NCBI GenBank assembly: GCA_965207995.1
Contig: CBDBNG010000001.1
Location: 4,681 to 68,680 of the forward strand
Length of the DNA: 64,000 nucleotides
Origin: Dehalococcoidia bacterium
Lineage (GTDB): Bacteria; Chloroflexota; Dehalococcoidia; SHYB01
Reading direction: 5' to 3'
Shown here in pieces: positions 1 to 49,417 of this stretch (its first letter is position 1; each line of letters starts with the position of its first letter). The notes beneath the pieces were generated by a model. The model made no database searches. It worked only from the letters and a program-made list of their open reading frames with translations, and was not told where the DNA came from. A program made the position numbers and the translations under genes.

Positions 1-3000
1 ACAGCTGCACCAGGAAGGTCTCGTCCTCCTCGCCCAGGGTGTCCTGGACCGTCTGCACCTTCAGCTTCACCGTCTTGAACCCCGCCGCGATGGTCGCGTC
101 GGTCTCCGCCACCGCCGTGTAGTCCGAAGCCCCCGCCGCGTGGGTCCCGTCTGCGTCCGCCGCCGTCTTCCACTTGAAGAAGACCGCCTTGCCCGAGGCC
201 GCCGAGAGGGTCGCCGTGAACTCCGCCAAGCCCCCCTCGGCCACGCTCACGTCGTTCACCGACAGGGTCGGCGCGTCGTCGTCGTCGGTGATGGTTCCCG
301 TGGCCTGGCCGTCGACAATGGTGGCGTTTCGTGGCTGCGAGAGCTTTATGAGGAAGGTCTCGTCATGCTCGTCCAGCGTGTCCCCGACGGTTCGCACTGC
401 GAGCCGGCCGCTGGTGTTGCCCGCCTTGATTCTGACAATACCTGTGTCGTATACGAAATCCTTTTGCTGTTCAGCCGGGTGGTCCCCGGTGCTGTCTGGA
501 CTCGTCCGCCACCCGACGAACACATCCGTAGGCGCGATCCTGCTTATGCTGACTGTGAACACCATCGTCTTGCCTTCGGCCACGGTGAGGTCGGCGATCG
601 ACAGCTCTATCGTCTCGTCGTCGTCGGTGATGGTCCCCGTGGCCGTCAGGTCCGACGCGTCCTCGTCCAGCGCCGCGTTGGTCGCCCCCGTCAGGGTCAC
701 GATCACCGTCTCGTCGTCCTCGTACAGCACGTCCCCCCTGATGGGGATGACGATGTTGGCCGTGGTCGACCCCGCCGGCACGCTCACGCTCAGCGGGTCC
801 GGTTCCGTGTAGTCGCCGGGCGCCCTCGCCGTCCCGGTCAGCGTGTAGGTGACGGTCACCACCTTGCCCGAGGCCGCCGACAGGCTCACCGGGAAGCTCA
901 TTTCGGTCGTCTTGGTTGGGTCGTCGCCCTCGATGACCGCCGCCCCCGGCGCGCCCACCGAGACCACCGCCGTGGCCGCATCGTCGTCCTTGATGGTCGC
1001 GGTGGCGGTCGCCGCGGCGTTGGGACCTCGAGCTATGCCGTCATCGTTTCCAGAGATCAACACAAAGGCCACTTCGTTGGGATGATCCTGGGAATGAACA
1101 GAACCTCGGACACTGGCTCTCAACTCGATCAGGAAGGTCTCGTTGTGCTCGTCGACTCTGTCTTCGGTGGTCTGTACCATGATCGTTTTGTTGATTTCAT
1201 CGAATCCAGTGTAGTTTCCCGGCCAAGTAACGGTCCCGTTTGTCACTGCGGTAAAGTCGTTGGCGTCCGCCGGGTGGTCGCCGTCGGGATCGGTGGCGGT
1301 GTTCCATTCCAGGGTGACGGTGTCATCCAACGCTTTTATCTGCTGAATCTGCACAAGGAATTTGATGGCATCCCCTTCATCGACCGGCTTGACTGGGTTA
1401 AGCACAATACTGGCCCTGATTACGTCGGTTACCGTTACCTTCACGTTCAGTCTGGAGGCCAAGCCTGATTCGTCGGTCGCCACCAGCGTGACCTCGTAGA
1501 CGTTGTCCTCGTCCTCGTCCTTGGGGTCTTCGAAGTCCTGGGCGGCCAGGGACAGTTGGGCCTTGGTCACGTCGGGGGTGGCGGTGGACGTGTTAGTCAC
1601 CGTGAAGAGATCGGCATCCTCCCCGCCGAGCGTCCAGGCGATTGCGCCGGTCGGGCTGCCCTCAACCCTGAACTCGTCGCGCCACGCCAAATTCTCATCA
1701 ACTTGGTGCTCTACCGCTCCACGCAGGGAAAATCTGTCGCTGATGGTGCCCACCGCCTCGGCGTCGAAAATGGTCGCGTTGGTGGGAGAAGAGAGCTGCA
1801 CCAGGAAGGTTTCGTCCTGCTCGGTTTCGTCGTCCCCGGTGGTCTGCACCTCCAGGGTCGCCGTCCGGTCCCCCGCCGCGATGGTCGCCGTCGTGGCCGT
1901 CACCGCCGTGTAGTCCGTAGCCCCGGCCGGGTTGGCTCCGTCGGCGTCGTTGGCGGTCTTCCACTGGAACGTGACGTCCCTGGCGGAGACCGTCGACAGC
2001 GTCACCGTGAAGGCAGCCTTGCTCCCTTCGGACGCGCCGGCGTCGGCCACCGACAAGGTGGGCGGGGCGTCGTTGTCAACGATAGTCGCGGTCACGCTCG
2101 CCGTGGCGTTCGGACCCAGCTTAACGACATCGCGATTGCCTAAAATGGTGAATTCCACTTCGTGGGGATGAACGGGATGCTTGGCAATGGCGTTTAGTTC
2201 GATCAGGAAGGTCTCGTCGAACTCATCCAGCGCGTCCTGGGTGGTCTGCACGGTGATCGTTTCGACGACGTCTTCTAAGCCCCTGCTGCCTGGCCAGCCA
2301 ATGGTCTGGACTGTCACCGGGGTATAGTCGCCGGCGTCCGCCGGATGGTCGCCGTCGGCGTCCGCGGCCGTGTTCCATTCCAGGGTGATTTTTTCCAGCG
2401 TCGAATCTTCGATGAGCGAGAAGACCCTCACCGTGAATGAGACGGCATTCCCTTCATCGACCGCCGTGCGAGGGTCAAACACAACGCCGCCAATGCTTAC
2501 GTTGGTGACCGTGACTTGCACGTCAGTTGCAGCGGACAGGCCCTTCGTATCGGTGGCCACCAGCGTGACCTCGTAAACGTTGTCCCCGTCCTTGTCCTTG
2601 GGGTCTTCAAAGTCCTGGGCGGGCAGGTCTATCTGTGCCTGTACCGAAAGGCTTGATGAAATGCTGACAACGGTGAAGAGGTCGGCGTCGTCCCCGGTAA
2701 GCGTCCAGGTGACGTCGTCGTGCGGATTGCCGTAGATGACGAAACTGTCGCCAGGACTGCTCCAGGCAACATTTTCGGTCGCTTCGAAACTGGTGTCTCC
2801 GGTGATCTGGAACCCGTCGGTGATGGTGCCTTCGCCCTCGCCGTCGGAGATGGTGGCGTCGGTGGGCGAGGACAGCCGCACCAGGAACGTCTCGTCCTCC
2901 TCGTCCATCGTGTCCTGGGCGGTCTCCACCTCCAGAGTCGCGGTCGTCGACCCCGCCATGATCGTCACCGTCTGCAAAGTGGTCACCGCGGTGTAGTCCG

Positions 3001-6000
3001 TTCCCGCCGTGGCCGGATTGGCCCCGGTTGCGTCGTCGGACGTTCCCCACTTGAAGGTCACCGCCTGCTCCGAGGCCGCGCTCAGGGTCACCTCGAAGGC
3101 CACCTTGCTGCCCTCGGGCGCTTCGGCGTCGGCCACCGACAGGGTGGGCGGGGCATCGTCGTCGGTGATGGTGCCGGTGGCCGTCAGGTCCGCGGCCGTG
3201 GCGGACAGCTCCGCGTTGACGGCCCCGGTCAGGGTAACGGTCACCGTCTCGTCATCCTCGTCCACCACGTCGCCCTTGACCGGGATGACGATGTTGGCCG
3301 TGGTAGACCCGGCGGGGATGGTGACTTCCAGCGGGTCCGGGGTCGTGTAGTCGCTGACCTCCTCGGCCGTCCCGCCTGTGGCCGTCCCGCCCAGGGTGTA
3401 GGTTAGCGTAGCGTCGCTGTTCCTGGCCGCCGACAGGCTCACCGGGAAGTTCAGGGCAGTCGTCTTGGTTGGGTCGTCGCCCTCGGCCACCGCTGCCGCC
3501 GGGGCCGCCACCGACGCTATGGGGAAGCTGGTGACGGTTACCCGCACGGCCTGGGTATCGCTATTGCCGTCTTCGTCGGTGGCCCGGGCGGTTACCTGGT
3601 ACACGTTGTCCGTGTTCTGGTCCTTCGGGTCATCGAAGTCCTGGGCCGGCAGGGAGATGACGCCGGTGTCCGCGTCAATGGTGAAGCGCGCGTCGTCGTC
3701 CCCTTCCAGGGTCCAGGTCACGTGGCCCAGGGGAGCGCCGGAAACCGTTGGGACGGGCGATTCCCAGTCCAGACCCTCCAGTCGCTCCGCGTCGCTGTAA
3801 CCGCCGACGGCCACCGAACCCAGGTCATCGTTCCGGATTGTTATCCGGGGCATCCGGTACGATTGGTTACCACCGACGGGGAAATATCCCCTGTAACGAG
3901 GCTGCGGGGGATTGACGGAAGCTATATAGAACAAAACCCCCAGGTCTTCATCGGCTTCAACGCGGCTGTCCTCGGTGGTGGGGACGGGCAATTTCCAGGA
4001 TTGAGTTCCCGACAATATAAGAACGGTGCGTGACGGATAACTCCCGTATCCGGTAATTCGTCTGCCCCGTTCCCAGCCGGTGTAGTCCACGTCGTCGTCG
4101 GCTGCCGGATTGCTGACCCCGGCAGTTGTCAGGTACACCAGACCCGTTACGAGACGCGTCAACGGGTTGGATGAATTGAACAAGATGTCAACCGTTTCCC
4201 CTTCGTCCACCACCCGGTCGGGGATGTAAAGATCCGTTTGGGTGGAGTCGTTGATCTCGACGGTGGACTCGCCTTCCACGGGGTGGATGTTCAGCCCGGC
4301 GGACGCCTCTTCCAGGAAAACGGTGAAGGTCTCGGGCACGGGCTCTGCCCGGCCGTCCTCGAATATGACGACATCGACCGTCTGCGCCGTTTCTCCGGGG
4401 GCGAAGGTGATCTTTTCGCGGACGGGCTGATAATCCTCTCCGGCGATTGCGGTGCCGTTCCTGACGTCGACGAACACCTCCAGCGCCTGCGTGTGGGCCT
4501 TGGAAAGGCTGACGGTGAACCGGGCGCGCCCGGCGTTCTCGTCCACCGAGGCGGGGCCGCTCACGGACGCCTGGGGCCGCTCGTCGTCAATGATGGTGGT
4601 GGTGAGCACCAACCCCAGCCGGGCGTCAGGCGAGAACAGGCTCCACCCCCTCCCAACGAACGGATAGAGCCACAGGGACAGGGTTTCGTTGCCTTCTGCC
4701 AAACTGTCTCCGCGGGGCCGCACACCAAACGTAATCTCGCGGAGTGTTCCCCCAAATTGTACGGTGTGAATCTCCGCCAGCTCGCCAATTCGAGTTCGCT
4801 CATGGCATTCCACTAAACTCGCCCGGAACTCGCCGTCGGCGATTTTGCCAACTGAGACATCCGTGCTGCCGGCGGCGCCCACAGTCAGGCCCCGAGGCGT
4901 CGCTCCTCCCGGGAGGTTCCGGGGGTTGGGACGCGTCAGGGCGCACACCTGAAATCCGAACTCGTCCCATGGAAAGTTCACTTCATCGGGATGCGCCGTC
5001 CGTCTGATCTTCACCTGATAGATCGTGTCGTCGTCCCAGTCGGCAGTCGTGCCCTCGGGAAGGGCCGCGGGGAGGACGCCGACGATCTCCCAGGTCAGGG
5101 CGTCGTCGTCCTCGATTTCGGCATAGCCGACGACGTTGCTGAAGTCGATGCTGGCTTCGTCGCCGCTGATGGTCACCCGGAACTCTTCGGTGTTCTCGAT
5201 GAAATCGTCGTCATTGACCGTGACCGAAACCGTCTTCTCGGTTTCGCCGGCCGCGAAGGTGACGGAGCCGCTGGCGGCGGTGAAGTCATTCTCTCCCTGG
5301 TTGCCGTTGCCTCCGCTGCGGGCCGAATGGAGTGGGCCCGAGGCCCCGTCGCTCGTTGCCCACCGGACGGTCACGGCCGAGGTCTGGGCCGGCTTGAGGC
5401 TGATCACGAAATCGGCCGTGGCGCCGGGACCCTCGGTGACCGGGGCGGCGTCGGCGATGGCTACCTGCATGGTGTCGTCGTTCTTGATGGTGCCCACGGC
5501 GGTGGGGTCCCGGAACTTGGCATGGGGCGCGTGGGCCAGCTGGATCCGGAACTGCTCGTCGACCTCGGGCTCGATGTCGGGCTGGGAATCCACCACGATG
5601 GTCTTGCTCAGCTCGCCCGGCGCGAAGGTGACGGTCTGCCGCGCCGTAACGCCCACGTAGTCATTGTCCAGGACACTGGCGGTGTCGTCCTCCGTCACCC
5701 ATATCACCGACACCGGCCTCTCCGAGGCGGCGTCCAGGGAGATGGTGAATTCGAGGCTGCCGCCTTCCACTGCCTCGGCGTCGCCAATGGACATCCAGGG
5801 CCGGGAGTCGTCGTCACGCACGGTCACCACCGCGTCAGCGTCGTCGGGCAGGGCGCTGGTAACGGAGACCACCGTCACGGTGAAGTACTGGTCGCCCTCG
5901 TCTATCGTGTCTTGCAGCGTCTGCACCGCGGGCAAGTCGATACTGGTCTCACCGGCGGGGATGGTGGCGGACTGCATGGTCCGCGCCGTGTAGTCCTTGC

Positions 6001-8410
6001 CTGCCTTGGCGGTGTGGGCGTCGTCGGCGCCGTTGCCGCCGTCCTGGGTCTTCCAGGTGAAAGTGACGTCGGTGGCCGACGGATCGCTGAGGGTGGCCCG
6101 CACGTGAGCCGGCTGCCCTTCGGTGACCTTGTCTTCCAGGACCGTCAGCGACAGGCCGGGCCGGTCCACGATGGTGATGGTGGGCATGGAGACGCTGGCC
6201 GCCAGGTCTGCATACTCGTAGTTGACCCCGAACAGTTGTTTTCGGACACGTTCATTTTCTGGCGCAACGCCCAGCAAGAAAAGGCTGGCCCCGGCTTCAA
6301 TCTCCAGGGTGAAGGTTTCCAGACCCTCGCCGCTTATCCCGTCGTCATGAACTCCAATCGCCTTGCGACCAGTGGTTTGGCCTTTCGGGACATGGATCCA
6401 AAAGGCCGTGCCGCTCAGGTCTCGATAATCAACCCCTCCCGTCGCCGTAATGTCTTTGGTCTTGAAGTTGGCGGACAGATCGTAGGGCACGGGCCTGGAG
6501 AGGGTGAGACGAACCACGGCCGAGACTCCTTCCAGCACCGTGGCGTCATCCACGGCAACCGTCAGTTCCACCGGGTCGTCGTCGTTGAGGATGATGCCGC
6601 GAGAGATGAGGCCGCCGCCTCCGCAAGAAGGCACGCCGCGGAAGCAGGCGTTCACCGCGTTGGTAAAGCTAATCCACACGACTTCATCGGGTTCTTTCTC
6701 GTAATCGCCCTTGACGGTAACCTCAACCTTCTTTCGCGTTTCGCCGGGCAGGAAGGTGAGGGTGCCGGAACTCAGGGCCTCATAGTCCGTGCCCGATGTG
6801 GCCTGGTCAGGCAGTCCGGTTCCGGCCCGAGAGATTCTTGCGTAGTTCACTTTGACCGTCCGGCCGCTGGACCGGTCCAGCCGGACAACGTAGGTGAGCT
6901 TGGCGGTTTCCCCTTCGTCGGGCTCCCTCACCGTCGAACTGGTCACGGACACGATTGGCGGGTCGTCGTCATCCGTGATGGTCAGTTCCTTCAGGAAATA
7001 GCGATGTTCATTGCCGTCAGCGTCGGTCTCTACTATGGGCTGGCCGCCGTCGGCGTCGACCGCCCGCAACCCTTCGGCATTGCCATAGAGCACCAGGATG
7101 CATTCGTCGTTCTCATCCAGAACATCCCGGCGGGTATAGACCTCGAAGTGCCTGGTCTGGTCTCCTGGCCCAAAGGTGAAGCGCTGTGAATTCACTGCCC
7201 GGTAATCCACGTGCTCCACCGCTTGTTTTTCGCCGCTGGCGCAATGGCTGCCCGTTGGCTCGACGACTTCGGCGAGGATGCTGGCATGCTCGCCGGGCCG
7301 CAGCGCCCGCGCCAGGGTGACGGGCAGCCGGGCAGCCTCACCCTCCGCCACCGTGCCGCCGCGGATCGTGACGTCGACGGTGTCTTCGCTTTCGATGAAG
7401 CCGTAGGCCTTGAGGGTTGTATCCGGAGTTCCGTCGCCGTCCTGGTCGGGAAACTCCAAGTTGCCGGATGGATTGCTGAGGGTCAGGGTAAAAGCCTCCA
7501 CCCCCTCAACGAGATTGTCGTCGACCGGGGTGACAACAATCTCCTGTACCTTGGTGTCCAGGAAGGAGAGTGTTCCCGATGCGCCGCCGGCGGGCGGCGT
7601 GTAGTCGCCGGCGCTGGCGGCATTACTGAAATCGGGTGGGGCGTCGGGTGTGATGGCGTAGTTGACGGTTTGAGCGGCGCCCTGTGGCGCGGTCGGCAAC
7701 TCAACCCGAAAGACGACCTTGCCGTCCTTCTTGGCAGCTTCTGTGGCGCCGTCGTCCCAGTCCTCCTTGCCTCGGTCGTTTGCCACGTTGACGGGGAGCG
7801 GCCGGTTGGTGATAGTGACCGTTATCTTGTTGTTGGGAAAACTAACTTCCGGATCCGAAAAGTTGAAGGGTTGGAAATCAATTGCGAACCTTTCCGGCTT
7901 CTCCGCTATACCATCCCAGATTGCCTCCAAGGATATGGTTGCGGTGCGAGCCTCTTCCGAACTGCCGCTAAGCGTTATAGTCCCCTGCCGAACGACAGTG
8001 TTTCCCCCAACCTTCGCCGTGAAGTCTTGTCCATATATACCAGCGGACCCGTAAGTTTCGGTGATGTCGATCGAGGGAATAAAGGTATAGTAAAATTTGC
8101 GCTCTCGGGTTCCGGAATTTGCCGGTATCGTTAGCGTGATGTCTTGGGCCGGTCCGCCTTCTAGAATCGTGACGCTGGTCGGGGATACTGTCACTGGGAC
8201 ACGGTCTGGGCCCTGCTGGGCCGAGACGTCACTGGCGAACAGGCCGACAAGGGTGGCGCCAACGATCAGGAACAGGCCCAGCCAATGCGTGTGCCATCCA
8301 GACCGGCTTTGGCGCTCTCGCGAGGCTTCCGCCGGTGTGCTGAATTCTACGATAGATGCAATCCGTGCCCAGTCTATGGAGCGTTTCACCATATAGTTAC
8401 CCATACTCAT
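1..8410 (-). CDS. Giant secreted repeat protein (>2800 aa, partial). The C-terminus lies beyond position 1. It alternates Calx-beta-like and cadherin-like domains and has an N-terminal signal peptide.
   Basis: The reverse-strand translation from ATG 8410 is MSMGNYMVKRSIDWARIASIVEFSTPAEASRERQSRSGWHTHWLGLFLIVGATLVGLFASDVSAQQ (n/h/c signal peptide). Reading on in the same frame (plus triplets starting at positions congruent to 2 mod 3) gives Calx-beta hallmarks many times: ATGTITDDDAP, GTAEEVSDYT, TVTFAPGET, VTFAAGETEKTVSVTVNDDD. It also gives cadherin-like DxDxD...NVYQVTARATDEDG and NVYEVTLVATDESG blocks. The frame was checked at positions 272, 626, 3164, 3851-5632, 6752, 7268 and 8276 with no stop met. 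The plus-strand ORFs listed in 140-8134 are antisense artefacts. Confidence 0.8.
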   Translation of the reverse strand, partial: MSMGNYMVKRSIDWARIASIVEFSTPAEASRERQSRSGWHTHWLGLFLIVGATLVGLFASDVSAQQGPDRVPVTVSPTSVTILEGGPAQDITLTIPANSGTRERKFYYTFIPSIDITETYGSAGIYGQDFTAKVGGNTVVRQGTITLSGSSEEARTATISLEAIWDGIAEKPERFAIDFQPFNFSDPEVSFPNNKITVTITNRPLPVNVANDRGKEDWDDGATEAAKKDGKVVFRVELPTAPQGAAQTVNYAITPDAPPDFSNAASAGDYTPPAGGASGTLSFLDTKVQEIVVTPVDDNLVEGVEAFTLTLSNPSGNLEFPDQDGDGTPDTTLKAYGFIESEDTVDVTIRGGTVAEGEAARLPVTLARALRPGEHASILAEVVEPTGSHCASGEKQAVEHVDYRAVNSQRFTFGPGDQTRHFEVYTRRDVLDENDECILVLYGNAEGLRAVDADGGQPIVETDADGNEHRYFLKELTITDDDDPPIVSVTSSTVREPDEGETAKLTYVVRLDRSSGRTVKVNYARISRAGTGLPDQATSGTDYEALSSGTLTFLPGETRKKVEVTVKGDYEKEPDEVVWISFTNAVNACFRGVPSCGGGGLISRGIILNDDDPVELTVAVDDATVLEGVSAVVRLTLSRPVPYDLSANFKTKDITATGGVDYRDLSGTAFWIHVPKGQTTGRKAIGVHDDGISGEGLETFTLEIEAGASLFLLGVAPENERVRKQLFGVNYEYADLAASVSMPTITIVDRPGLSLTVLEDKVTEGQPAHVRATLSDPSATDVTFTWKTQDGGNGADDAHTAKAGKDYTARTMQSATIPAGETSIDLPAVQTLQDTIDEGDQYFTVTVVSVTSALPDDADAVVTVRDDDSRPWMSIGDAEAVEGGSLEFTISLDAASERPVSVIWVTEDDTASVLDNDYVGVTARQTVTFAPGELSKTIVVDSQPDIEPEVDEQFRIQLAHAPHAKFRDPTAVGTIKNDDTMQVAIADAAPVTEGPGATADFVISLKPAQTSAVTVRWATSDGASGPLHSARSGGNGNQGENDFTAASGSVTFAAGETEKTVSVTVNDDDFIENTEEFRVTISGDEASIDFSNVVGYAEIEDDDALTWEIVGVLPAALPEGTTADWDDDTIYQVKIRRTAHPDEVNFPWDEFGFQVCALTRPNPRNLPGGATPRGLTVGAAGSTDVSVGKIADGEFRASLVECHERTRIGELAEIHTVQFGGTLREITFGVRPRGDSLAEGNETLSLWLYPFVGRGWSLFSPDARLGLVLTTTIIDDERPQASVSGPASVDENAGRARFTVSLSKAHTQALEVFVDVRNGTAIAGEDYQPVREKITFAPGETAQTVDVVIFEDGRAEPVPETFTVFLEEASAGLNIHPVEGESTVEINDSTQTDLYIPDRVVDEGETVDILFNSSNPLTRLVTGLVYLTTAGVSNPAADDDVDYTGWERGRRITGYGSYPSRTVLILSGTQSWKLPVPTTEDSRVEADEDLGVLFYIASVNPPQPRYRGYFPVGGNQSYRMPRITIRNDDLGSVAVGGYSDAERLEGLDWESPVPTVSGAPLGHVTWTLEGDDDARFTIDADTGVISLPAQDFDDPKDQNTDNVYQVTARATDEDGNSDTQAVRVTVTSFPIASVAAPAAAVAEGDDPTKTTALNFPVSLSAARNSDATLTYTLGGTATGGTAEEVSDYTTPDPLEVTIPAGSTTANIVIPVKGDVVDEDDETVTVTLTGAVNAELSATAADLTATGTITDDDAPPTLSVADAEAPEGSKVAFEVTLSAASEQAVTFKWGTSDDATGANPATAGTDYTAVTTLQTVTIMAGSTTATLEVETAQDTMDEEDETFLVRLSSPTDATISDGEGEGTITDGFQITGDTSFEATENVAWSSPGDSFVIYGNPHDDVTWTLTGDDADLFTVVSISSSLSVQAQIDLPAQDFEDPKDKDGDNVYEVTLVATDTKGLSAATDVQVTVTNVSIGGVVFDPRTAVDEGNAVSFTVRVFSLIEDSTLEKITLEWNTAADADGDHPADAGDYTPVTVQTIGWPGSRGLEDVVETITVQTTQDALDEFDETFLIELNAIAKHPVHPHEVEFTILGNRDVVKLGPNATASVTATIVDNDAPPTLSVADAGASEGSKAAFTVTLSTVSARDVTFQWKTANDADGANPAGATDYTAVTATTATIAAGDRTATLEVQTTGDDETEQDETFLVQLSSPTNATIFDAEAVGTISDRFSLRGAVEHQVDENLAWRDEFRVEGSPTGAIAWTLGGEDADLFTVTNTSTATPDVTKAQLSLAAQDFEDPKDEDEDNVYEVTLVATDESGLASRLNVKVTVTDVIRASIVLNPVKPVDEGDAIKFLVQIQQIKALDDTVTLEWNTATDPDGDHPADANDFTAVTNGTVTWPGNYTGFDEINKTIMVQTTEDRVDEHNETFLIELRASVRGSVHSQDHPNEVAFVLISGNDDGIARGPNAAATATATIKDDDAATAVVSVGAPGAAVIEGDDPTKTTEMSFPVSLSAASGKVVTVTYTLTGTARAPGDYTEPDPLSVSVPAGSTTANIVIPIRGDVLYEDDETVIVTLTGATNAALDEDASDLTATGTITDDDETIELSIADLTVAEGKTMVFTVSISRIAPTDVFVGWRTSPDSTGDHPAEQQKDFVYDTGIVRIKAGNTSGRLAVRTVGDTLDEHDETFLIKLSQPRNATIVDGQATGTITDDDDAPTLSVNDVSVAEGGLAEFTATLSAASGKAVFFKWKTAADADGTHAAGASDYTAVAETDATIAAGFKTVKLKVQTVQDTLGEEDETFLVQL

Positions 8411-8420
8411 TTTACTATGC

Positions 8421-8446
8421 GGGGGGGGGGCAGGGCAGGGGGGGGG
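8421..8446. repeat. Homopolymeric tracts G10-CAGGGCA-G9 (C10/C9 on the coding strand) 11-36 nt upstream of the giant gene start codon
   Basis: Seen directly: gggggggggg at 8421-8430 and ggggggggg at 8438-8446. Confidence 0.9.
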
Positions 8447-8637
8447 CTACCCTAAATGCAACGAGAATGAGTCCAAGATCCACTACCCAGCGGCAAGAAT
8501 GCGATTTCGGGCCACTTGGTTGGGCCGGTGTCGGCGACGCCATCTTCACGGTGACGGCCAGCACGAACGGGTCTTCCCCGGCTCGCGGCGCTGCCGGCAG
8601 TTTCCCCCAGAGATTCATCCACGGATTCGCCCCGTTG

Positions 8638-9678
8638 TCATCGCTCCTCCCCCATGTCTTGCGCCTCCAGCAGCAAGCGAAGGGTCTGGGCCGACGTCCT
8701 CTCCTCCACCTCCGCCATGAAGACATCTGCCGATGGAAGGAAATAGTCTTCTGCGGGCCACAGGTCTCCCACAGGTGGAGGGTCGGCAAAGGTGGCAACC
8801 TTCTCCGGGTAGTGCACATAGGCTTCACGGACGCTCCGGCGCAGGGCTTGCACCAGGCTCAGCGCCTCGCTGATGCTGATTTCGTCCTCCGGGTATGACC
8901 AGGTGGTCGCACCCATGACGTCACCCACCTGCCAGTCGGTCTTGGGCGAGTTCGGGTCGCTGTTGTGGCAGACCACGCACGCCTCCGCCGAGGCGATGTC
9001 CGAGAACATGGCGGTCTGAAAGCCGATATCCGGGTCCAGGAAGAACTGCGGCTCGCCGGTGCGCCTGATGACTTGAAAGTGCTCTGTCTGCAAGCCGGTG
9101 AACTTGTTGGCGTCATTGATCGGGAAGTCCGAGCCGAGGAAGAGATACAGGGGAACCGGACTACGACAGAGACCCTTGGCAGTCTCCCGCAGGAAGAGCG
9201 CCGGAAGCGGCCCGGCGTGCGTGGGGGTGATAGGGTCGTCCTCCAACGAGGTGTCCTGGTGGCAGTGGGTGCAGAAACCGATGGTGGGCTGAGTCACCCG
9301 CACCCCTTGGTGCTCGGTGTGGCAGGCGACGCACATGTGGGCCTCGATGTGCTCCCGTGCATCGGCGAAGCGCGGCTCGAGGAAGCGGGAGATCGGGTGC
9401 CGGTCGTCAGGCCTCTCGTGGCAGTCCAGACAGGCTGCGTTACCGACATCCTCGGAGCCAAAACCGATGGTGGACTCCCGCAGGCCCAGCCAGTCGTAGA
9501 CGTTGGAGTTCAGTTGCTGCGCGGCGGTGCCCGCTACGGCTGAGTGGCATTCCTGGCAGCCCAATCCCTCGTGGCCAGTGTTCATGGGCCCCTTGGCAAC
9601 CAGCGCGTTGCGGTCCGGGAATGTGAGAAACGCCACCAAGAGCAGGCCCAGCGCGACGACCGACTGCAACGCCGACAT
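8638..9678 (-). CDS. Pentahaem c-type cytochrome with signal peptide
   Basis: The ORF translation has five CxxCH motifs (CQECH, CLDCH, CVACH, CTHCH, CVVCH). The N-terminus is hydrophobic (MSALQSVVALGLLLVAFLTF). Confidence 0.8.
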   Translation of the reverse strand: MSALQSVVALGLLLVAFLTFPDRNALVAKGPMNTGHEGLGCQECHSAVAGTAAQQLNSNVYDWLGLRESTIGFGSEDVGNAACLDCHERPDDRHPISRFLEPRFADAREHIEAHMCVACHTEHQGVRVTQPTIGFCTHCHQDTSLEDDPITPTHAGPLPALFLRETAKGLCRSPVPLYLFLGSDFPINDANKFTGLQTEHFQVIRRTGEPQFFLDPDIGFQTAMFSDIASAEACVVCHNSDPNSPKTDWQVGDVMGATTWSYPEDEISISEALSLVQALRRSVREAYVHYPEKVATFADPPPVGDLWPAEDYFLPSADVFMAEVEERTSAQTLRLLLEAQDMGEER

Positions 9679-10886: not shown

Positions 10887-11114
10887 ATGTATATGCCCGA
10901 GGAACTTACCGTACCCCAAGCAGCGTCCTACCTCAACGTAAGTGAGGAGACGGTTAGACGAAACATAAGGTCGAGACGCCTGAAAGCGTTACGCAGGGGA
11001 ACCCAGTGGTTCATTCCTCGCGATATTCTCGTCGTCTTTGCAAACAGCTACGATCCTAAGACTGGCAAGTTACGATGCCATGAGAGACCGAGTCAAGGAA
11101 ATGGAAGGCTCTAG
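10887..11114 (+). CDS. Excisionase-family (HTH_17) DNA-binding protein. It is either a controller for the downstream MTase operon or an Xis.
   Basis: LTVPQAASYLNVSEETVRRNIRSRRLKALRRGTQWFIPRDIL is a typical HTH_17 / AlpA-Xis helix-turn-helix. It is the first gene of the plus-strand operon. Confidence 0.7.
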   Translation: MYMPEELTVPQAASYLNVSEETVRRNIRSRRLKALRRGTQWFIPRDILVVFANSYDPKTGKLRCHERPSQGNGRL

Positions 11115-11121
11115 GACAACC

Positions 11122-12336
11122 ATGAACGCAGGCACCAAGATTCCCGACTTCTTGGCTGTGGACTTCTATTGTGGAGCCGGGGGTACTACCCGTGGGCTTC
11201 TGGATGCAGGTGGGTATGTGATTTGCGGCATCGACAAGGACGAGACGAACCGTACCTCCTACGAGGACAACAATCGCAACACCACTCTTGACCGACGTAA
11301 GCCGAAGTATCTGGCGCTCGACATGTTTCCTCGCAGCCCGGACCATCCTACAGGGCAACAGCGGGAAATCTGGATTGAGCTAAAGTCTCTTATTCCGCGC
11401 TTTCGCGCCGAGGCCCCGAGCTCACCGTTGCTGTTCGTCATTTGTGCGCCATGTCAATCATTCACCCGATTCATACAGCGTCGAATGACGGTCGACCGAA
11501 CCGAGAGCCGCGAACGCGACCTGAATCTATTGTACCAGACGATAGGGTTCATCAGAGAGTTCCGACCCGAAATGATCATTTCGGAGAATGTGGCGAGCAT
11601 CAGGACTGGTAAGTTCAGCCACATTTGGAGCAATTTTGAGAAAGAGTTGCGAAACCTCGGCTATGCCGTAGGTGAGGATCGAGTCTGCGCGTCGCGCTTC
11701 GGAGTGCCCCAATATCGGCGACGATCGGTCCTGCTGGCGATGCGCGTCGAGAGCCCAGCCGACCTGGTACAGGATTTGCCGGTGCCTACTGCTGATCCCG
11801 ACGCTCCGACTCTTTCCGCGAGGGGAGCTCTCGACCATCTTCCCGACTTGGAGGCAGGGGAGGAATCCGACGACGTTGCAAATCACATTTGTCGAAATAT
11901 CACCGAAGTCAATCGCCGTCGTCTCATGTCTGTCAAACCCGGAGAGGCCAACTGGGGGCTCGCAAAGACCCAGTTCGGTGACCTGTCGCTACCTTGCCAT
12001 CGCAGACTTGCCGCCAAAGGTAAGAAGGGCTTCGGGGACGTGTACACCCGAATGCATCCAGACCGTCCCTCACCAACCTTGACAACGAGGTTCCACAGCA
12101 TTTCGAACGGAAGATTCGGGCACTATGACGAAGAGCAAGTTCGTGGCCTGTCGTTGCGCGAAGGCGCCATTCTTCAATCGTTCGGTGACGAGTATGTATT
12201 TCATGGTGAGAGTATGGACACCATTGCCAGGATGATAGGCAATGCAGTCCCCCCCAAGCTGTCGGCCTACATGGCGAAGTGGCTTCTGAACCTTTGGCAA
12301 GGCCGTTTTCGGAAGCATGTCAACCCAGCAAGTTGA
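11122..12336 (+). CDS. DNA (cytosine-5)-methyltransferase (Dcm-type)
   Basis: C5-MTase motifs are present: I FLAVDFYCGAGG, IV ICAPCQSFT, VI ISENVASI, VIII VPQYRRRSVLL, and C-terminal RMHPDRPSPTLTT and GNAVPP. The start is set at MNAGTK (11122) to avoid overlap with the upstream gene. Confidence 0.9.
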   Translation: MNAGTKIPDFLAVDFYCGAGGTTRGLLDAGGYVICGIDKDETNRTSYEDNNRNTTLDRRKPKYLALDMFPRSPDHPTGQQREIWIELKSLIPRFRAEAPSSPLLFVICAPCQSFTRFIQRRMTVDRTESRERDLNLLYQTIGFIREFRPEMIISENVASIRTGKFSHIWSNFEKELRNLGYAVGEDRVCASRFGVPQYRRRSVLLAMRVESPADLVQDLPVPTADPDAPTLSARGALDHLPDLEAGEESDDVANHICRNITEVNRRRLMSVKPGEANWGLAKTQFGDLSLPCHRRLAAKGKKGFGDVYTRMHPDRPSPTLTTRFHSISNGRFGHYDEEQVRGLSLREGAILQSFGDEYVFHGESMDTIARMIGNAVPPKLSAYMAKWLLNLWQGRFRKHVNPAS

Positions 12337-12343
12337 GGCGGTC

Positions 12344-12760
12344 ATGAGCGATATTCTGACAAAGGAAAGGCGTTCAGAGCTAATGTCCCGTGTCAAGAGC
12401 AGGGACACGTCACCAGAAGTGTTCGTCCGCAGGGCGGCTTGGGACGCTGGGTTTCGCTATCGGCTGAATGTTCGGGAATTGCCAGGGACACCAGACTTAG
12501 TGTTCCGTCGCTACGACACTGTAGCGCTAGTGCAGGGGTGCTTCTGGCACTGCCACAATTGCCGCAAAGGACGGCGCCGCCCGACTTCCAACCAAGCTTT
12601 CTGGAATCGCAAACTAGATGGTAACGAAGCGAGGGACGCCGCGAATCAAGCGAGGCTCCGGGAGATGGGCTGGACAGTGCTCTTGATTTGGGAATGCCAG
12701 CTTTATGAAGGGACAGAAGCCCTATTGGCACACCTTGGAGAGCTTCGGTCCGCTAGATGA
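12344..12760 (+). CDS. vsr: Very-short-patch repair endonuclease (Vsr)
   Basis: DTSPEVFVRRAAWDAGFRYRLNVRELPGTPDLVFRRYDTVALVQGCFWHCHNC...NQAFWNRKLDGNEARD...GWTVLLIWECQL matches the Vsr signature. RBS GAGG lies upstream of ATG 12344. Confidence 0.85.
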   Translation: MSDILTKERRSELMSRVKSRDTSPEVFVRRAAWDAGFRYRLNVRELPGTPDLVFRRYDTVALVQGCFWHCHNCRKGRRRPTSNQAFWNRKLDGNEARDAANQARLREMGWTVLLIWECQLYEGTEALLAHLGELRSAR

Positions 12761-15700
12761 GCAATTCTATGAATCAGGTCACGGCACAATTCACGGCTAG
12801 CGCTCGTACCGTTGATATGCTGGGACGCCAGCAGATTGCGGGCATTCCGAATGCCATCAGCGAATTATTTAAGAACGCGTACGATGCGTACGCAGATCGT
12901 GTAGTCGTCGAATACTACCAGCCTGAACACCTATTGGTTCTCTGGGACAATGGGCTAGGTATGACCAGGGAGGACATAGAGCAGAAGTGGTTGGTACTGG
13001 GCACCGACAGTAAGGTCGGAGACAGGAAAGGGGACTTGTCCGCCATAGCGAAGGAACTAGGCTTGGAGCACCGGAACACGGTTGGAGAGAAGGGCATCGG
13101 TCGCCTCGCAATAGGGGTAATCGGGCCACAGGTCTTGCTGCTTAGTCGGGCAAAGCGAGTTAGAGAATCACCGAAGATGGTTGCTGTTTTCGTTAACTGG
13201 TCTTTGTTTGAACTCCCGGGCGTGTCTCTGAATGAAATAGTAGTTCCGTTAAGGGAGTTTGACCACGGGATATTGCCAAACAAGGCCACTGTAGCCAGCA
13301 TGGTGGACGAAGTCAGGCAGAATCTCAAGCGGCTGCGGCGTACCGGGGACGAGGCAAGAATCAAGGAAATCGAGCAACAATTGGATGGATTCGATTTCGA
13401 TCCCGCTGCCATGCAAGCAAGATTCGGTGATTCGACCTTGAGTAATGCTGGCTTTGGCACTCAGTTCTACATTCACCCCGTTGACAGTGTCCTCAATGAG
13501 GCCCTGGAGGAGAGACAGCGTGCTAGAACGGTAGGGACCCGAGCAGCAAGGCTGAAACTGCGCAATATGCTGGTTGGCTTCACGAACACGATGGTTCACG
13601 AAGATGTCCAGCCACCCATAAGTACCGAGTTCTATTACTATCCCAAAATGGACGTACGCGTGCCGATAATAGGCAGCGAAGAGTTCTTCACCCCCGAAGA
13701 ATTCGCTTCTGCGGATCATCACATTAGTGGCAGGTTTGATGAACGGGGACAATTCACAGGCACTGTCTCTGTGTACGGCAACGCAGTAAACAATCATGTC
13801 ATTTCGTGGCCGGAAGGTAGAGGCGAAACGGCCGACTGCGGGCCATTTCATTTGAATCTAGCCTATGTCCAGGGTCAAGAGTTCGAGACGCGCATGTATG
13901 TAGAGGATTGGCGTAACCTCAACCGCAAGCTGGATGAGATGGGCGGGCTATACATCTACCGAAATGGGATCCGGATCCTTCCCTACGGCGATCCGGACGT
14001 CGATTTCTTGAGGTTCGAGGAACGACGTTCTAGAAGGGCAGCCACCTATTTTTTCTCCTATCGGCGGATGTTTGGGACGATAGAACTTTCAAACGACCGA
14101 AGATATAGGCTGCAGGAGAAAGCGGGACGCGAAGGTTTCATGGAGAACCGTGCGTTTCGGCAGTTTAGAGATATCCTAGAGCACTTTTTTACACAACTGG
14201 CTGCCGATTTCTTCCGCGAAGATTCTCCTAGCGGCACTTTCCAGGTGGAGCGAGAGGAACTTAGCCGTCAAGCCAAGGCAGCTCGACTAAGGGACAAGGA
14301 AGTTGCTCCTGTCCGATCAAGATTTGTCCGTGAATTGCGCCGCATTAAGTCTGACGTTGAGTCTGGAACGTTCGAGGACCGTGTCGAAGAAGTCATAGAA
14401 AGACTGGGATCGGACTTAAACAATAGTGCTGCTCTTCTAGACCCCAGGGAAAGGCAAGGGGCTATCGTGGCGGCGAGCCTAACGGCTGTAAATGAGATCG
14501 AGAACTTACGAGCAAGGTACAGGCCCCCCGAGCCTGAGGGATTCGGAGCCAACCAGTCGTTGCGACGGGAATTGAACGAGTACGGTCTGTTGTTTGCCAG
14601 TAAGGAGGACCGGGTACTAAGGCCTGCTTCGATCCGGGTCGAAGAGATGCTGTGGGAGTCAAGCGAGATATCTGGCCTCGCCTCTGACCGTCAGAGACTT
14701 CTGAAGGATCGTCTCGACCGCTTGATCGAGTCAGAGGTAACCGCTTTAGATTCCGATACCCAAAAGGCCTCTGAAGAGGTCGACCGAGTCTCTCAAATGG
14801 CAAAGGAGGCGTTATCCACGCAAGCCATAGAACTTAGGAACACCCTTGACATGATTGTTTCCAGGGTGGAAGAGAGCTCCCTTGACTTGTTGTCTGACAG
14901 CGAGCTGGCGAGCTTGGCGGTTTCGATGACGTCCGAGATATCAATCTTGAGTGAGGCCAAGCACCGCATAATAGACGACATAAGGAAGCAGTTCGCCATT
15001 GTGAATGTCCACCCGGACGAATCAGGAACACTGATCACCCAAGGTGATGTCGTCGGCGCTATGGAGGAGGACATAGATTCCTTAAGGCACGACTCCTTCA
15101 GAGACTTGGAGTATGTGCAACTAGGAATGACCATCGGCATCATTGATCATGAGCTCCAAGCCGTCATCCGGTCGCTACGCCTTAACCTGGGGAGACTCCG
15201 GTCTTGGGCGGTAAGGAACGAAGACCTGGCTGAAGTCTATCAAGGCATCCGAGTCAATTTTGACCATTTGGATAGCTATTTGCGATTGCTCACGCCACTG
15301 CAACGTCGCTCACGGAGAACCCTTTCTGAAATCAAGGGTTCGGCCATCTACAACTTCATCGAAGAATTGTTTGCTACGCGGTTTGCCGAACACGATATAA
15401 GACTAGAGCAGGCAACGGCTTTTGAGAACTATTCTCTGGTCAGCTACCCCTCTACGTTTTATCCTGTCTTCATTAATTTAGTTGACAACGCGATGTACTG
15501 GCTACAACGTCGGCAATCTGGACGTGTTATAAGCTTCGATGTCGAGGGAGATGCTCTGCTAGTCCGTGATAACGGGCCCGGAATCTCTGCCTTGGATCGT
15601 GAAGCAGTGTTTGAAGCTGGTTTCACTCGCAAACCTGGAGGAATGGGGCTTGGATTGTATATCGCAAGGAGTCAGTTGAGGCAAGTTAACTATGACATTG

Positions 15701-15780
15701 AGATTCTCGACCCTCCGAATGGTGAAGGAGTGACATTCAGGATAGCTCCTCTGGAGGCAGTTAATGACCGGAGTCAATAG
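12757..15780 (+). CDS. 1007-aa protein with two GHKL ATPase domains. The N-terminal domain is MutL/MORC/Hsp90-like and the C-terminal domain is a histidine-kinase-type HATPase_c, with a long coiled-coil middle. Function unknown.
   Basis: N-terminal Bergerat motifs are ISELFKNAYDAYA, LWDNGLGMTREDI and GEKGIGRLAIGV. C-terminal HK motifs are FINLVDNAMYWL (N box), VRDNGPGIS (G1) and GGMGLGLYIARSQL (G2), with a possible H-box IIDHELQAVIRSL. The start ATG overlaps the vsr stop (ATGA). Confidence 0.7.
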   Translation: MSNSMNQVTAQFTASARTVDMLGRQQIAGIPNAISELFKNAYDAYADRVVVEYYQPEHLLVLWDNGLGMTREDIEQKWLVLGTDSKVGDRKGDLSAIAKELGLEHRNTVGEKGIGRLAIGVIGPQVLLLSRAKRVRESPKMVAVFVNWSLFELPGVSLNEIVVPLREFDHGILPNKATVASMVDEVRQNLKRLRRTGDEARIKEIEQQLDGFDFDPAAMQARFGDSTLSNAGFGTQFYIHPVDSVLNEALEERQRARTVGTRAARLKLRNMLVGFTNTMVHEDVQPPISTEFYYYPKMDVRVPIIGSEEFFTPEEFASADHHISGRFDERGQFTGTVSVYGNAVNNHVISWPEGRGETADCGPFHLNLAYVQGQEFETRMYVEDWRNLNRKLDEMGGLYIYRNGIRILPYGDPDVDFLRFEERRSRRAATYFFSYRRMFGTIELSNDRRYRLQEKAGREGFMENRAFRQFRDILEHFFTQLAADFFREDSPSGTFQVEREELSRQAKAARLRDKEVAPVRSRFVRELRRIKSDVESGTFEDRVEEVIERLGSDLNNSAALLDPRERQGAIVAASLTAVNEIENLRARYRPPEPEGFGANQSLRRELNEYGLLFASKEDRVLRPASIRVEEMLWESSEISGLASDRQRLLKDRLDRLIESEVTALDSDTQKASEEVDRVSQMAKEALSTQAIELRNTLDMIVSRVEESSLDLLSDSELASLAVSMTSEISILSEAKHRIIDDIRKQFAIVNVHPDESGTLITQGDVVGAMEEDIDSLRHDSFRDLEYVQLGMTIGIIDHELQAVIRSLRLNLGRLRSWAVRNEDLAEVYQGIRVNFDHLDSYLRLLTPLQRRSRRTLSEIKGSAIYNFIEELFATRFAEHDIRLEQATAFENYSLVSYPSTFYPVFINLVDNAMYWLQRRQSGRVISFDVEGDALLVRDNGPGISALDREAVFEAGFTRKPGGMGLGLYIARSQLRQVNYDIEILDPPNGEGVTFRIAPLEAVNDRSQ

Positions 15781-17467
15781 CTCGCTCGATTACGCCAGCC
15801 AATCGAGAGGAATCGCACAGCGATTTCTTCGTAATGTCCTTTTGCTGGACGACCGAGCCTCCATGGGGCCTTCGCGTATTTTGAGTAGACGGCAATCTGC
15901 TTTGGAGACCCCTGGTCCTGAATCCGTCGACGTTGAATTGCCTGCCGCTGGCCAGGTATTGGCTGGCGCGGAGTCTTTAGACGCTAAAGAGGTTGTTAGA
16001 GGGTTTGCCAAACTGGGCCTAATGTGTGCCCCGTTAGTCCCTGATATCGATGGTGCAGGAGAAGAAGATACTTTCGTGAACGATTTTTGCGAGGCTGCAG
16101 AAAGGGCAGACATCCTGGTTCTCGATTGGTGGATGAGCGGCAATCGGAATTGGAGCAAGCCTCAGTTGGCGCAAAGAGTGATTCGGAGAATTATTGAACG
16201 AGACCAAACTGCCGGGGGTAGGTTACGCTTAGTTGCAATCTATACTGGAGAACCAAATACAACTCGAATTCTGGAGAAGCTGAAGACTTTGGTGCGGCAA
16301 CGATATCAAGGATTCAACCTGTTGCCTGCAGAGGTGGCTGGTCAACCGAACGTTGATTGGCTGTCCAAAGGTCCATTCCGCTTGGTGGTCATTCCGAAGA
16401 ACCCTGGAGCAACTGTAGGTGATCCAATAGCGGGACGTGATTTGGCAGATCGGCTGGTACAGGAGTACTCACAGTTAACGCGTGGGTTACTGCGAAACGT
16501 AGCATTCTGTGGATTAGCGGCTTTGAGAGAGCGTGCCCATCAGTTGCTTGCTACCTTTGAGAATGACATTGACCCTGCATTCCTTATCCATCGAGCATTG
16601 CTAGATGATACTAATGACGCCGAATCCCATGTCATTGAGATACTGGGTTCGGAGTTGTTGGCAATTCTCGAAGACCAAGAAGTAGGTGCGGAAGTTGGAG
16701 ACAATGCCATAGATAGGTGGCTGAGTCACTATGGACAAGATGCATTCGTCAACGTGAGCGGCTTATTGAAGTGGGGACAGAGCACGATCGATGCATGGAG
16801 TCGAGTCTTGACTCGCGGCGCGGGCTACAACGGTCGTCCGGAAGGGGTGTCGAGGAAGGATGTGGACGAATTGGTTGAAGTGCTGAGAAGCGACGGAACG
16901 CAAGCTCTACTACCTAGAGAAGGGAACCTTAATGATGATAGCTATCAGGAGATGGCTCGGCAAGCAAACTTCAAACTCGCTTCTTTGATGAATACAAGAA
17001 ATGTGTACACAGACAAACATCCATATTTGACGTTAGGGACAGTTCTGTTTCGTAAACGCGACGGGAAGTACTTTGTTTGCCTCCAGCCGAAGTGCGATTC
17101 CGTTCATTTGAGGGGAAGCAGACCCTTTCCTTTACTTTCGCTGTCCATTGCGGAAGAGCATAGCAAATACAATTTAGTCCTCAGAGATGAAGGATTGGAG
17201 AACGAATGGGTCTGGCTCGTTGTCCGAGCGGGATCTAGGAGTCTCGAATTGCCTACATTCACGCCTGAAGAAACGTCTGGGAAGGTTATCGCGACAAAGA
17301 GAGCCGGGGGTCTTTCTTTCAAGGATGACAAGAATGCGGTATATCGTTGGGTGGCTGCGATGAAGGATGAACATGCCCTGAGGATTGTAAACGAACTTGC
17401 CTCTAATCTGGCTAGGCCGGGCCCAAACGACTCAGAATGGCTACGACGCAACTTCCCGCAGACATAG
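15764..17467 (+). CDS. 567-aa protein with N-terminal receiver (REC)-like domain and uncharacterised C-terminal region
   Basis: REC-like landmarks are NVLLLDD (beta1 acidic pair), ADILVLDWWM (phospho-acceptor Asp position) and LRLVAIYTGEP (Thr position). No recognisable effector motif was seen in the C-terminal 400 aa. It overlaps the upstream gene by 17 nt. Confidence 0.55.
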   Translation: MTGVNSSLDYASQSRGIAQRFLRNVLLLDDRASMGPSRILSRRQSALETPGPESVDVELPAAGQVLAGAESLDAKEVVRGFAKLGLMCAPLVPDIDGAGEEDTFVNDFCEAAERADILVLDWWMSGNRNWSKPQLAQRVIRRIIERDQTAGGRLRLVAIYTGEPNTTRILEKLKTLVRQRYQGFNLLPAEVAGQPNVDWLSKGPFRLVVIPKNPGATVGDPIAGRDLADRLVQEYSQLTRGLLRNVAFCGLAALRERAHQLLATFENDIDPAFLIHRALLDDTNDAESHVIEILGSELLAILEDQEVGAEVGDNAIDRWLSHYGQDAFVNVSGLLKWGQSTIDAWSRVLTRGAGYNGRPEGVSRKDVDELVEVLRSDGTQALLPREGNLNDDSYQEMARQANFKLASLMNTRNVYTDKHPYLTLGTVLFRKRDGKYFVCLQPKCDSVHLRGSRPFPLLSLSIAEEHSKYNLVLRDEGLENEWVWLVVRAGSRSLELPTFTPEETSGKVIATKRAGGLSFKDDKNAVYRWVAAMKDEHALRIVNELASNLARPGPNDSEWLRRNFPQT

Positions 17468-38479: not shown

Positions 38480-39740
<1,261 letters not shown>

Positions 39741-39774
39741 GACACACGAAATTCAACATACAAGGAAGAGAACC

Positions 39775-49183: not shown

Positions 49184-49417
49184 ATGACCACTCCCAGGCG
49201 TTCCAAGACCATCACCTTCTCGCTGCCCCCGGAGATGGAAGCGCAGGTCAGGCGGGTGATGAAGGAGGACGACCTCTCCGTGAGCGAGCTCCTCCGGCAG
49301 GGTATACGCCTGTTCATGGAGGAGCGGGAGTGGCGAAGACGGGAGCGGCTACAACGGCTGCGCTCCCGCACGACTGCCAAGCACGACGACACAGACACAG
49401 GGAGGAGGAATCAATGA
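49184..49417 (+). CDS. Ribbon-helix-helix (CopG/Arc-like) DNA-binding protein
   Basis: TITFSLPPEMEAQVRRVMKEDDLSVSELLRQGIRLFMEE. Confidence 0.6.
   Translation: MTTPRRSKTITFSLPPEMEAQVRRVMKEDDLSVSELLRQGIRLFMEEREWRRRERLQRLRSRTTAKHDDTDTGRRNQ

Follow-up and report, generated by a model that had tools for sequence, protein, structure and literature searches.

What do two long runs of a single nucleotide do immediately ahead of a giant gene in a bacterial genome that is otherwise poor in such runs? The question is raised by 64,000 nucleotides of a Dehalococcoidia bacterium (assembly GCA_965207995.1, contig CBDBNG010000001.1, positions 4,681 to 68,680; hereafter the window, meaning this whole stretch), in which a minus-strand open reading frame (ORF) of more than 2,800 codons begins at ATG 8410 and runs off the window start. 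Its product is adhesin-like, with Calx-beta (~10 stretches), Cadherin, LapA and InlK_D3 domains; the same gene encodes at least 6,012 aa in one related contig (L001) and 3,017 aa in another (L002). Direct reading of the plus strand gives G10 at 8421–8430 and G9 at 8438–8446, separated by CAGGGCA, exactly where an earlier interpretation of the letters alone (the sequence-only reading) had put them ahead of this gene; it had regarded them as two hypermutable tracts for phase-variable expression or, alternatively, as a G-quadruplex-prone element. From the comparisons described below, we give about even credence to the view that G10 and G9 are the interrupted allele of a slippage-prone poly-C contingency repeat that would tune expression of the giant surface protein.

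On the minus strand, which is the strand of the gene, the order is TTGCATTTAGGGTAG-C9-TGCCCTG-C10-GCATAGTAAA-ATG(8410)-AGTATGGGTAACTATATGGTG, with GTAG directly preceding C9 and the tract ending 10 nt upstream of ATG 8410. Together with flanking C residues the interruption TGCCCTG forms (CCCTG)2, and the interrupted element spans 26 nt overall (Table 1). The hexamer TAAAAT (8414–8409, minus strand), matching TATAAT at five of six positions, lies 6 nt downstream of the tract and overlaps ATG 8410; the segment that holds it, GCATAGTAAAAT, is the same in all alleles described below except for G8420 to C in L002.

The rarity of such runs was evaluated within the window, whose composition is 63% G+C. 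G10 and G9 are its only homopolymers longer than 7 nt, the next longest is one C7, and G/C runs of length 6 number 16, which confirms the earlier remark that homopolymers are few elsewhere. A single G9 is within what a dinucleotide null allows, since 2.4 G9/C9 matches per window are expected from the shuffles and 3 are seen, with three or more in 42 of the 100. The pairing of the two runs is not chance: two same-base runs of at least 9 nt within 30 nt arise with P ~0.001 and a run of at least 14 nt, as in the sister alleles, with P ~0.004 per 64 kb (1,000 simulations), and the real sequence is depleted in G/C runs of at least 7 nt (3 observed versus ~19.5 expected under a first-order Markov model). 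The only other simple-sequence repeat (SSR) found in the window is (AGGC)4 at 42230–42245, inside a large ORF (39646–42423).

Related contigs indicate how the two runs are to be read. Three sister alleles (L003–L005) were found by a pattern search with the unique flanks in Dehalococcoidia metagenome-assembled genomes (MAGs) of the GTDB species-representative set, and two (L001 and L002) by an exact-protein look-up of the upstream gene, on contigs of ENA sample ERZ25069580. The tract is uninterrupted in all five, being C14 in L001 and L004, C16 in L005 and C17 in L002 and L003, and the window allele alone is interrupted (C9-TGCCCTG-C10, 26 nt versus 14–17 nt). Because the five sisters carry one unbroken tract, G10 and G9 are a single interrupted repeat whose usual state is C14–C17; thus both runs of the sequence-only reading are real, but its division of them into two separate tracts does not hold. 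The comparison between related strains that it had proposed came out in its favour, with differing lengths (14, 14, 16, 17, 17 and an interrupted 26) between conserved flanks. In a region of 280 nt that includes the tract, only four differences are seen among the six sequences, namely the tract, a tandem duplication of 11 bp in L001, an insertion of 8 bp in L003 and the G-to-C change abutting the tract in L002, and the tract is the sole recurrently variable site of this otherwise identical region in six genomic backgrounds.

Over 10 kb the window differs from L001 at 17 substituted positions and in two indels, one being the tract and the other the 11-bp duplication, and the same 17 single-nucleotide polymorphisms separate it from L002 and L003. 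All other homopolymers in the 10 kb shared by the window and L001 have the same length and ORFs of 9–18 kb are intact; a generally poor indel quality is therefore unlikely. The segment of 8–10 kb that carries the cytochrome and adhesin genes is 99.2–99.6% identical between the window and L001 and L003–L005, and 97.3% identical to L002. Beyond window position 10052 the contigs are unrelated, which marks them as different backgrounds and not re-assemblies of one strain, and the near-identity of the shared segment despite different flanks suggests recent spread or very close relatives. As to the minor differences, the duplicated 11 bp of L001, CCGCTGGGTAG, lie upstream of the tract at ~11190 (window ~8495); the insertion of L003 (window ~8643) falls just ahead of the stop codon of the cytochrome gene and changes the C-terminus of its product; and 228 of the 268 differences from L002 fall in one 1-kb stretch (window 1000–2000), the repeat-domain region of the giant gene, a clustering that suggests recombination or a mosaic tract among internal repeats.

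The element thus unites several features of contingency loci, that is, a G/C repeat of at least 8 nt, a position 5' of a gene and length polymorphism between conserved flanks, and the gene that it would control encodes a surface protein, as is typical of SSR switches. In the mechanism that we favour, replication slippage (slipped-strand mispairing) would change the tract length at high frequency, the length would set the amount of the giant protein as an ON/OFF or rheostat-like heritable switch, and the resulting surface heterogeneity in the population may be useful against host cells or phages. The window allele is longer than its sisters by 9–12 bp, about one helical turn; since each of its runs is at most 10 nt, the interruption should reduce slippage, and this allele is most likely a stabilised (locked) variant. 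The earlier suggestion of a phase-variable, hypermutable tract is partly supported, as the length differences between strains and the recurrence before other giant genes described next both fit slippage and a possible contingency role.

Similar repeats occur at the equivalent place before a second, unrelated family of giant secreted-protein genes in co-occurring bacteria, most named members of which are MAGs associated with sponges (Table 1). In L006, also from ERZ25069580, C16 ends 23 nt before the ATG of a different giant gene, encoding an fn3 protein that exceeds 2,900 aa and opens with a good signal peptide; homologues of its N-terminal domain are found in MAGs of several phyla, several of them with sponge-project style names. 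Members of this family share the order pyrimidine repeat, 5–9 nt, G-rich Shine–Dalgarno (SD)-like motif, 4–9 nt and start codon, the repeats lying 15–23 nt ahead of the giant-gene starts, and the C16, C17, C9 and C9 loci are on four GC-rich contigs, one of them labelled Chloroflexi. A census of 262 kb of these loci placed every homopolymer of at least 8 nt, and the sole long dinucleotide repeat, just 5' of a giant-gene start. Conservation begins at the repeat in two pairs, L006 (13180–13560) with L132 (1–330) and L134 (5790–6060) with L136 (4440–4712): ahead of the tract L006 and L132 are unrelated, and far more divergence is seen in their signal-peptide codons than in their leader; L134 and L136 are near-identical in leader and start and strongly diverged ahead of the repeat. 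Since the SD motif follows the repeat and no −10-like element was found downstream of the tract in L006, L132, L130 and L133, the repeat of the second family would most likely be transcribed. The tetranucleotide GCAT that follows the tract both in the window and in L006/L132 is probably a coincidence or local homology, because a C14GCAT scan of metagenome contigs returned at least 120 matches, mostly on low-GC or otherwise unrelated contigs and many at contig ends, and none of these matches precedes a giant ORF.

The only habitat link is a relative, SB0668_bin_13, other SB0668 bins being listed among sponge-associated bacteria (PMC7883664), and we infer the sponge association of the window organism from the second gene family alone; looking for the accessions of the source samples in the literature gave no match. 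It is conceivable, although we hold it only tentatively and with considerable doubt, that pyrimidine SSRs form a shared and portable module which controls, from the 5' side, giant adhesin genes passed horizontally between members of apparent sponge microbiomes. In that case the 5' edge of an exchanged cassette would be marked by the repeat, poly-C in GC-rich, Chloroflexi-like contigs and (CT)n in Acidimicrobiia, and slippage would confer heritable ON/OFF or graded expression, possibly via the loading of Rho or of ribosomes on polypyrimidine RNA. That the repeat recurs in different phyla at a cassette's 5' edge is the least certain extension of the proposal.

Two placements of a slippage-prone repeat may be envisaged in the window. 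In the first, the tract would fill the spacer and −35 zone of a promoter upstream of TAAAAT, in the manner of the Bordetella fim genes, which would yield a leaderless or near-leaderless mRNA, perhaps starting translation at ATG 8392 after the GGG at 8402–8400; a promoter role of TAAAAT is something that we only infer from its sequence. In the second, the tract would belong to a transcribed 5' leader, as in Haemophilus influenzae hmw1A or Moraxella catarrhalis uspA1. ATG 8410 is the gene-caller's pick for the same locus in L001 and L002, and no SD sequence lies ahead of it. ATG 8404, ATG 8392 and GTG 8389 are in-frame alternative starts; past GTG 8389 there is no in-frame ATG, GTG or TTG before the hydrophobic segment WLGLFLIVGATLVGLFA, which starts ~45 residues into the adhesin ORF. 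The only promoter-like match, at 8371–8344, was judged to be due to chance, as it lies inside the ORF with no usable start downstream.

A start farther upstream would make the tract part of the coding sequence. If translation began at an upstream ATG (MNLWGKLPAAPR...), the tract would encode poly-proline within the ORF and join the giant gene in frame only when n = 1 mod 3, other lengths ending at a TAG (−7) or at the TGA that overlaps ATG 8410. One frame is in fact open across the whole intergenic region and the tract, fusing with the giant ORF in L005 (C16), stopping at the ATGA overlap in L002 and at the TAG in the window, L001, L003 and L004, and in P0121 and P0126 gene callers let homologous ORFs run across the tract. 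However, a 75-codon open frame is expected by chance in an estimated one-third or so of such regions at 63% GC, and the G+C content at third codon positions in this frame is 0.66, against 0.74–0.91 for most genes of the window (two island genes are lower). Moreover, the ATGs downstream of the tract can be used at any tract length, with the extension over 100 residues would separate the hydrophobic segment from the N-terminus, and no comparable upstream ORF is found in L132 or L133, so we regard a translational switch of this kind as highly improbable.

Several results weigh against the view that slippage in the tract tunes expression. A sigma-70 promoter scan made no call at the tract, where neither a −35 nor an activator site was recognised, TAAAAT being passed over by the consensus scanner because it has no −35 partner, and in a hand search no tract length gave a recognisable −35/−10 pair at 17 bp (TTGCAT...TAAAAT at that spacing would need n = 2). 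A promoter-spacer role would not be general either, because the second family lacks the downstream −10; nor is the repeat itself universal in that family, since L135 and L137 lack it and L131 has a degenerate form. Folding of the window-type leader does not exceed that of shuffled sequences, and this leader is, if anything, unstructured, with a folding z of −0.09 for the window leader and +1.9 to +2.3 for the C14/C17 leaders, compared with −1.6 for the L006 family, the only one in which pairing with GGGGG is predicted. In the folding simulation the accessibility of the ribosome-binding site (RBS) is flat with tract length once n is at least 5. The exact locus, scanned for with a variable gap, was not found in the JGI metagenome contigs scanned, which thus supplied no allele from a second sequencing technology, and the literature searched contains no report of SSR switching in Chloroflexota or sponge symbionts. 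Finally, the names and sizes of most contigs (ctgN_15x_l, contig_N, 0.4–3.5 Mb) look like those of long-read assemblies. Homopolymers longer than 10 nt are a classic error site of such assemblies, and the differences among C14, C16 and C17 (1–3 nt) may be partly homopolymer errors.

The same folding results would suit a polypyrimidine leader of fixed function, that is, a putative unstructured, G-poor RNA element whose changes in length are a by-product of slippage, and which might act as a Rho loading site (making transcription of the 8–18 kb gene conditional on translation initiation), as an S1 or standby site, or as an anti-SD partner of GGGGG. Poly(C) and (UC)n are classical high-affinity ligands of Rho, and S1 binds polypyrimidines. 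Every tract is pyrimidine on the sense strand, either poly-C or (CT)n, those of the second family lie 5–9 nt 5' of the G-rich SD-like motif, and the leader from tract to start is the same, letter for letter, in L006 and L132, although the sequences next to it have diverged. The window-type leaders (C14/C17) fold less than their shuffles, the C tracts of L006 and L132 are predicted to pair with the GGGGG ribosome-binding motif, and RBS accessibility that does not depend on length fits a length-independent role. On the other hand, anti-SD pairing would need just 5–6 nt; natural rut (Rho utilisation) sites are C-rich over 60–90 nt, and the window sequence after the tract is not C-rich; and the loci are largely homologous, which reduces the agreement in strand to only ~2–3 independent cases. 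A fixed-function leader thus appears rather unlikely as an account of the tract. A length-dependent anti-SD hairpin was also considered and rejected; in four leaders simulated for n = 0–24, RBS accessibility showed no dependence on length.

The tract could also be a neutral, slippage-prone scar at a recombination junction of exchanged cassettes, of no consequence for regulation, or its length variation could be purely a sequencing or assembly artefact. In favour are the long-read look of the assemblies and the two pairs in which homology begins exactly at the repeat (L006/L132 and L134/L136). In the same direction, the adhesin 5' region is joined to a truncated cytochrome operon at ~8555, an insertion sequence (IS) adjoins the L006 tract, several family members are split or IS-hit, and long poly-C is common noise in metagenome contigs, as in the C14GCAT scan. 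Yet the junction of the window type (8555) is 109 nt away from the tract, and these genomes otherwise show a strong avoidance of long homopolymers. Retention at no fewer than five loci in two phyla and in the same position argues for maintenance, the difference between 26 and 14–17 nt is too large for a homopolymer error of ±1–2 nt, C17 recurs in an NCBI MAG on a 19-kb contig (L132), and a C9 is present at 110x coverage. Taken together, a scar or an artefact seems an unlikely account of the tract and its length variation.

The last possibility is that the DNA itself matters, a template-strand G-quadruplex, an i-motif or H-DNA blocking or modulating transcription of the adhesin gene. The window allele qualifies for a quadruplex by its sequence, G10-CA-GGG-CA-G9 holding more than four G3 runs, and to this extent the alternative put forward by the sequence-only reading is possible; it is not conserved, however, in the sisters and relatives. 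The alleles and relatives with G14, G9 or (GA)18 cannot form a canonical three-tetrad intramolecular quadruplex, an RNA quadruplex is impossible in the C-rich mRNA, and with C9 or (CT)18 in relatives a quadruplex cannot be what the loci have in common. Mirror sequences of the homopurine–homopyrimidine type, to which every one of the repeats belongs, are able to adopt triplex H-DNA in supercoiled DNA. A role for DNA structure is, in our estimation, very unlikely.

The proposed contingency repeat is worth comparing with known systems. In the Bordetella fim promoters a C-stretch ranging from C10 to C19–22 sets transcription and is polymorphic between strains, and B. parapertussis fim3 has an interrupted C6TC3 allele (PMC1891110). 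Like fim2, fim3, fimX and fimN, the window locus has a long poly-C directly upstream of a surface-adhesin gene, an interrupted allele and then, here, the −10-like TAAAAT; by analogy, the window allele may correspond to C6TC3 and be stabilised. In contrast to the Bordetella genes, it is without a known BvgA site ('fim box') or mapped promoter, lies in a member of the Chloroflexota, precedes a gene for a giant repeat protein instead of a fimbrial subunit, and would need a leaderless or very short leader for the promoter placement. In H. influenzae hmw1A, a pyrimidine-rich SSR, (ATCTTTC)n, in the 5' untranslated region (UTR) pairs with a G-rich region, and the repeat number tunes expression (PMC12721329). 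The likeness to hmw1A consists in a pyrimidine-rich repeat upstream of a large adhesin gene and in the predicted GGGGG pairing in L006 and L132. The repeat here is, however, a homopolymer and not a heptamer, hmw1A is defined by RNase III processing and a long hairpin, and the window-type leader has no significant structure, with a simulated RBS accessibility independent of length. The poly-C/poly-G promoter tracts of Neisseria meningitidis opc and porA and of Treponema pallidum tpr, and the poly-G of the M. catarrhalis uspA1 5' UTR, confer graded or ON/OFF expression on genes for outer-surface proteins via slipped-strand mispairing. Those tracts have been mapped relative to the −35/−10 elements or the transcription start in cultured, host-associated pathogens, whereas the present lineage is represented by uncultured MAGs.

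Phase variation driven by slippage is textbook biology of mucosal pathogens. If the tract acts as proposed here, uncultured animal symbionts would hedge their surface display as pathogens do, which would bear on the escape of symbionts from host phagocytosis or from phages. A practical point is that gene callers extend ORFs through such tracts (P0121 and P0126) and that tract lengths may come out wrong in long-read assemblies.

Table 1. Coordinates of features in the window and repeats ahead of second-family giant genes.
Feature	Sequence	Position	Strand	Remark
5' part of giant secreted/anchored repeat protein gene	Window	1..8410	−	No stop to window position 1
Candidate start cluster	Window	8390..8410	−	ATG 8410–8408, ATG 8404–8402, ATG 8392–8390; GTG 8389–8387 just downstream
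GCATAGTAAAAT, AT-rich, between tract and ORF	Window	8409..8420	−	Holds −10-like TAAAAT
Proximal C10 sub-tract (G10 on plus strand)	Window	8421..8430	−	Sequence and allele alignment
Interruption TGCCCTG, window allele only	Window	8431..8437	−	Not present in L001–L005
Distal C9 sub-tract (G9 on plus strand)	Window	8438..8446	−	Aligns with 5' part of single C14–C17 tract of L001–L005
Locus-specific upstream region	Window	8447..8554	−	Identical in six contigs except for L001 11-bp duplication; not in ancestral cytochrome operon
Remnant, 5' end of third gene (transmembrane protein, ~180–190 aa) of ancestral cytochrome operon	Window	8555..8637	−	
Multihaem cytochrome c + DUF3365/Tll0287-like haem protein fusion	Window	8638..9678	−	Pfam
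C5 DNA methylase	Window (island)	11038–12336		
HATPase/HEF_HK	Window (island)	12757–15780		
Response_reg_2	Window (island)	15764–17467		
DprA-like gene	Window (island)	17747–18361		
SMODS nucleotidyltransferase	Window (island)	18378–19403		
Eco57I/MmeI-type restriction–modification enzyme	Window (island)	21454–24792		
SNF2/PLD helicase–nuclease	Window (island)	24792–28187		
Multi-helix-turn-helix protein	Window (island)	28691–30085		
Large serine recombinase	Window (island)	49330–51006		Abuts tRNA-Val 50994–51070
C17	L132 (NCBI Chloroflexi MAG, 19-kb contig)			Leader 100% identical to L006 through ATGAGGCGCCC
C9	L130 (ERZ25069580)			Then GACTTCCGGGGGCGTC-GTG
C9	L133 (ERZ25069580, 110x circular 3.5-Mb contig)			Then TTCGGTGTGGCTGTG-ATG
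Degenerate C-rich stretch	L131 (ERZ25069580)			Gene disrupted by IS66
(CT)18	L136 (Acidimicrobiaceae MAG)			Ends 18 nt before GTG
(TC)4	L134 (Acidimicrobiaceae MAG)			Leader shared with L136
No repeat	L135 (ENA contig)			
No repeat	L137 (ENA contig)			

Some further features of the second family may be recorded. Its genes are split or interrupted in L130 (6001–13362), L131 (6001–8294), L132 (88–6871) and L133 (6001–8417), a split meaning two overlapping ORFs and an interruption an IS66 transposase; these may reflect pseudogenisation, frameshifts or assembly errors. The IS next to the L006 tract encodes an IS4-type transposase and lies just upstream. At L006 13245–13262, a strong AGGAGG and an ATG open a small ORF (MTDALRSFT-PPPPP...) that starts 24 nt upstream of C16 and reads through the tract; the tract length would decide whether it joins the giant ORF, overlaps it in another frame or ends at a TGA that overlaps the main ATG, and it is absent from L132. 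A tRNA-Arg(CCT) gene (L136 4402–4475) lies ~120 nt upstream of (CT)18 and the giant gene, and a sequence like a tRNA 3' end is located upstream of the giant gene of L135, which hints that giant genes of this family sit at tRNA-linked islands.

A search with the first 300 aa of the window adhesin returned no match in the database used, and hence no distant orthologue for footprinting. Not even the identical L001 and L002 genes came back, and giant proteins may therefore be unretrievable from it. The upstream neighbour of the gene is a fusion protein, its halves being an in-frame join of a cytochrome c of ~220 aa and a DUF3365/Tll0287 protein of 273 aa; homologues cover ~43% or ~55% of the query, and the two are separate genes in L007–L009. 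Homology to the ancestral three-gene cytochrome operon stops at ~8555 (in the comparison with L006, at window 8555). The adhesin gene, with the 109 nt that precede its tract, was therefore joined to a truncated operon. A terminator scan found no terminator-like site between the cytochrome fusion and the adhesin gene, so read-through from the former is possible. An Rfam search of the whole window at the gathering threshold, and of 8300–8750 at E ≤1, gave tRNAs only, with no match at the locus.

An invertible promoter was considered and rejected, since only weak inverted repeats (16–19 nt, 79–88% complementary) are present and the orientation does not differ among the six contigs; the serine recombinases nearby are of the large integrase type and belong to inserted islands. 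The window has an apparent defence or mobile island of ~41 kb at 10052–51070. It begins at a sharp junction common to all contigs, situated at ~10052 in the window, ~9627 in L001 and L002, ~6258 in L004 and ~2480 in L005. Past this junction L001, L002 and L005 contain different islands, each with a large serine recombinase; the last ~90 nt of the island recombinase genes fall within the shared DNA. In L004 the corresponding part, with genes for hybrid sensor kinases, has the look of an empty site, and the shared junction resembles a hot spot at which serine-recombinase islands integrate.

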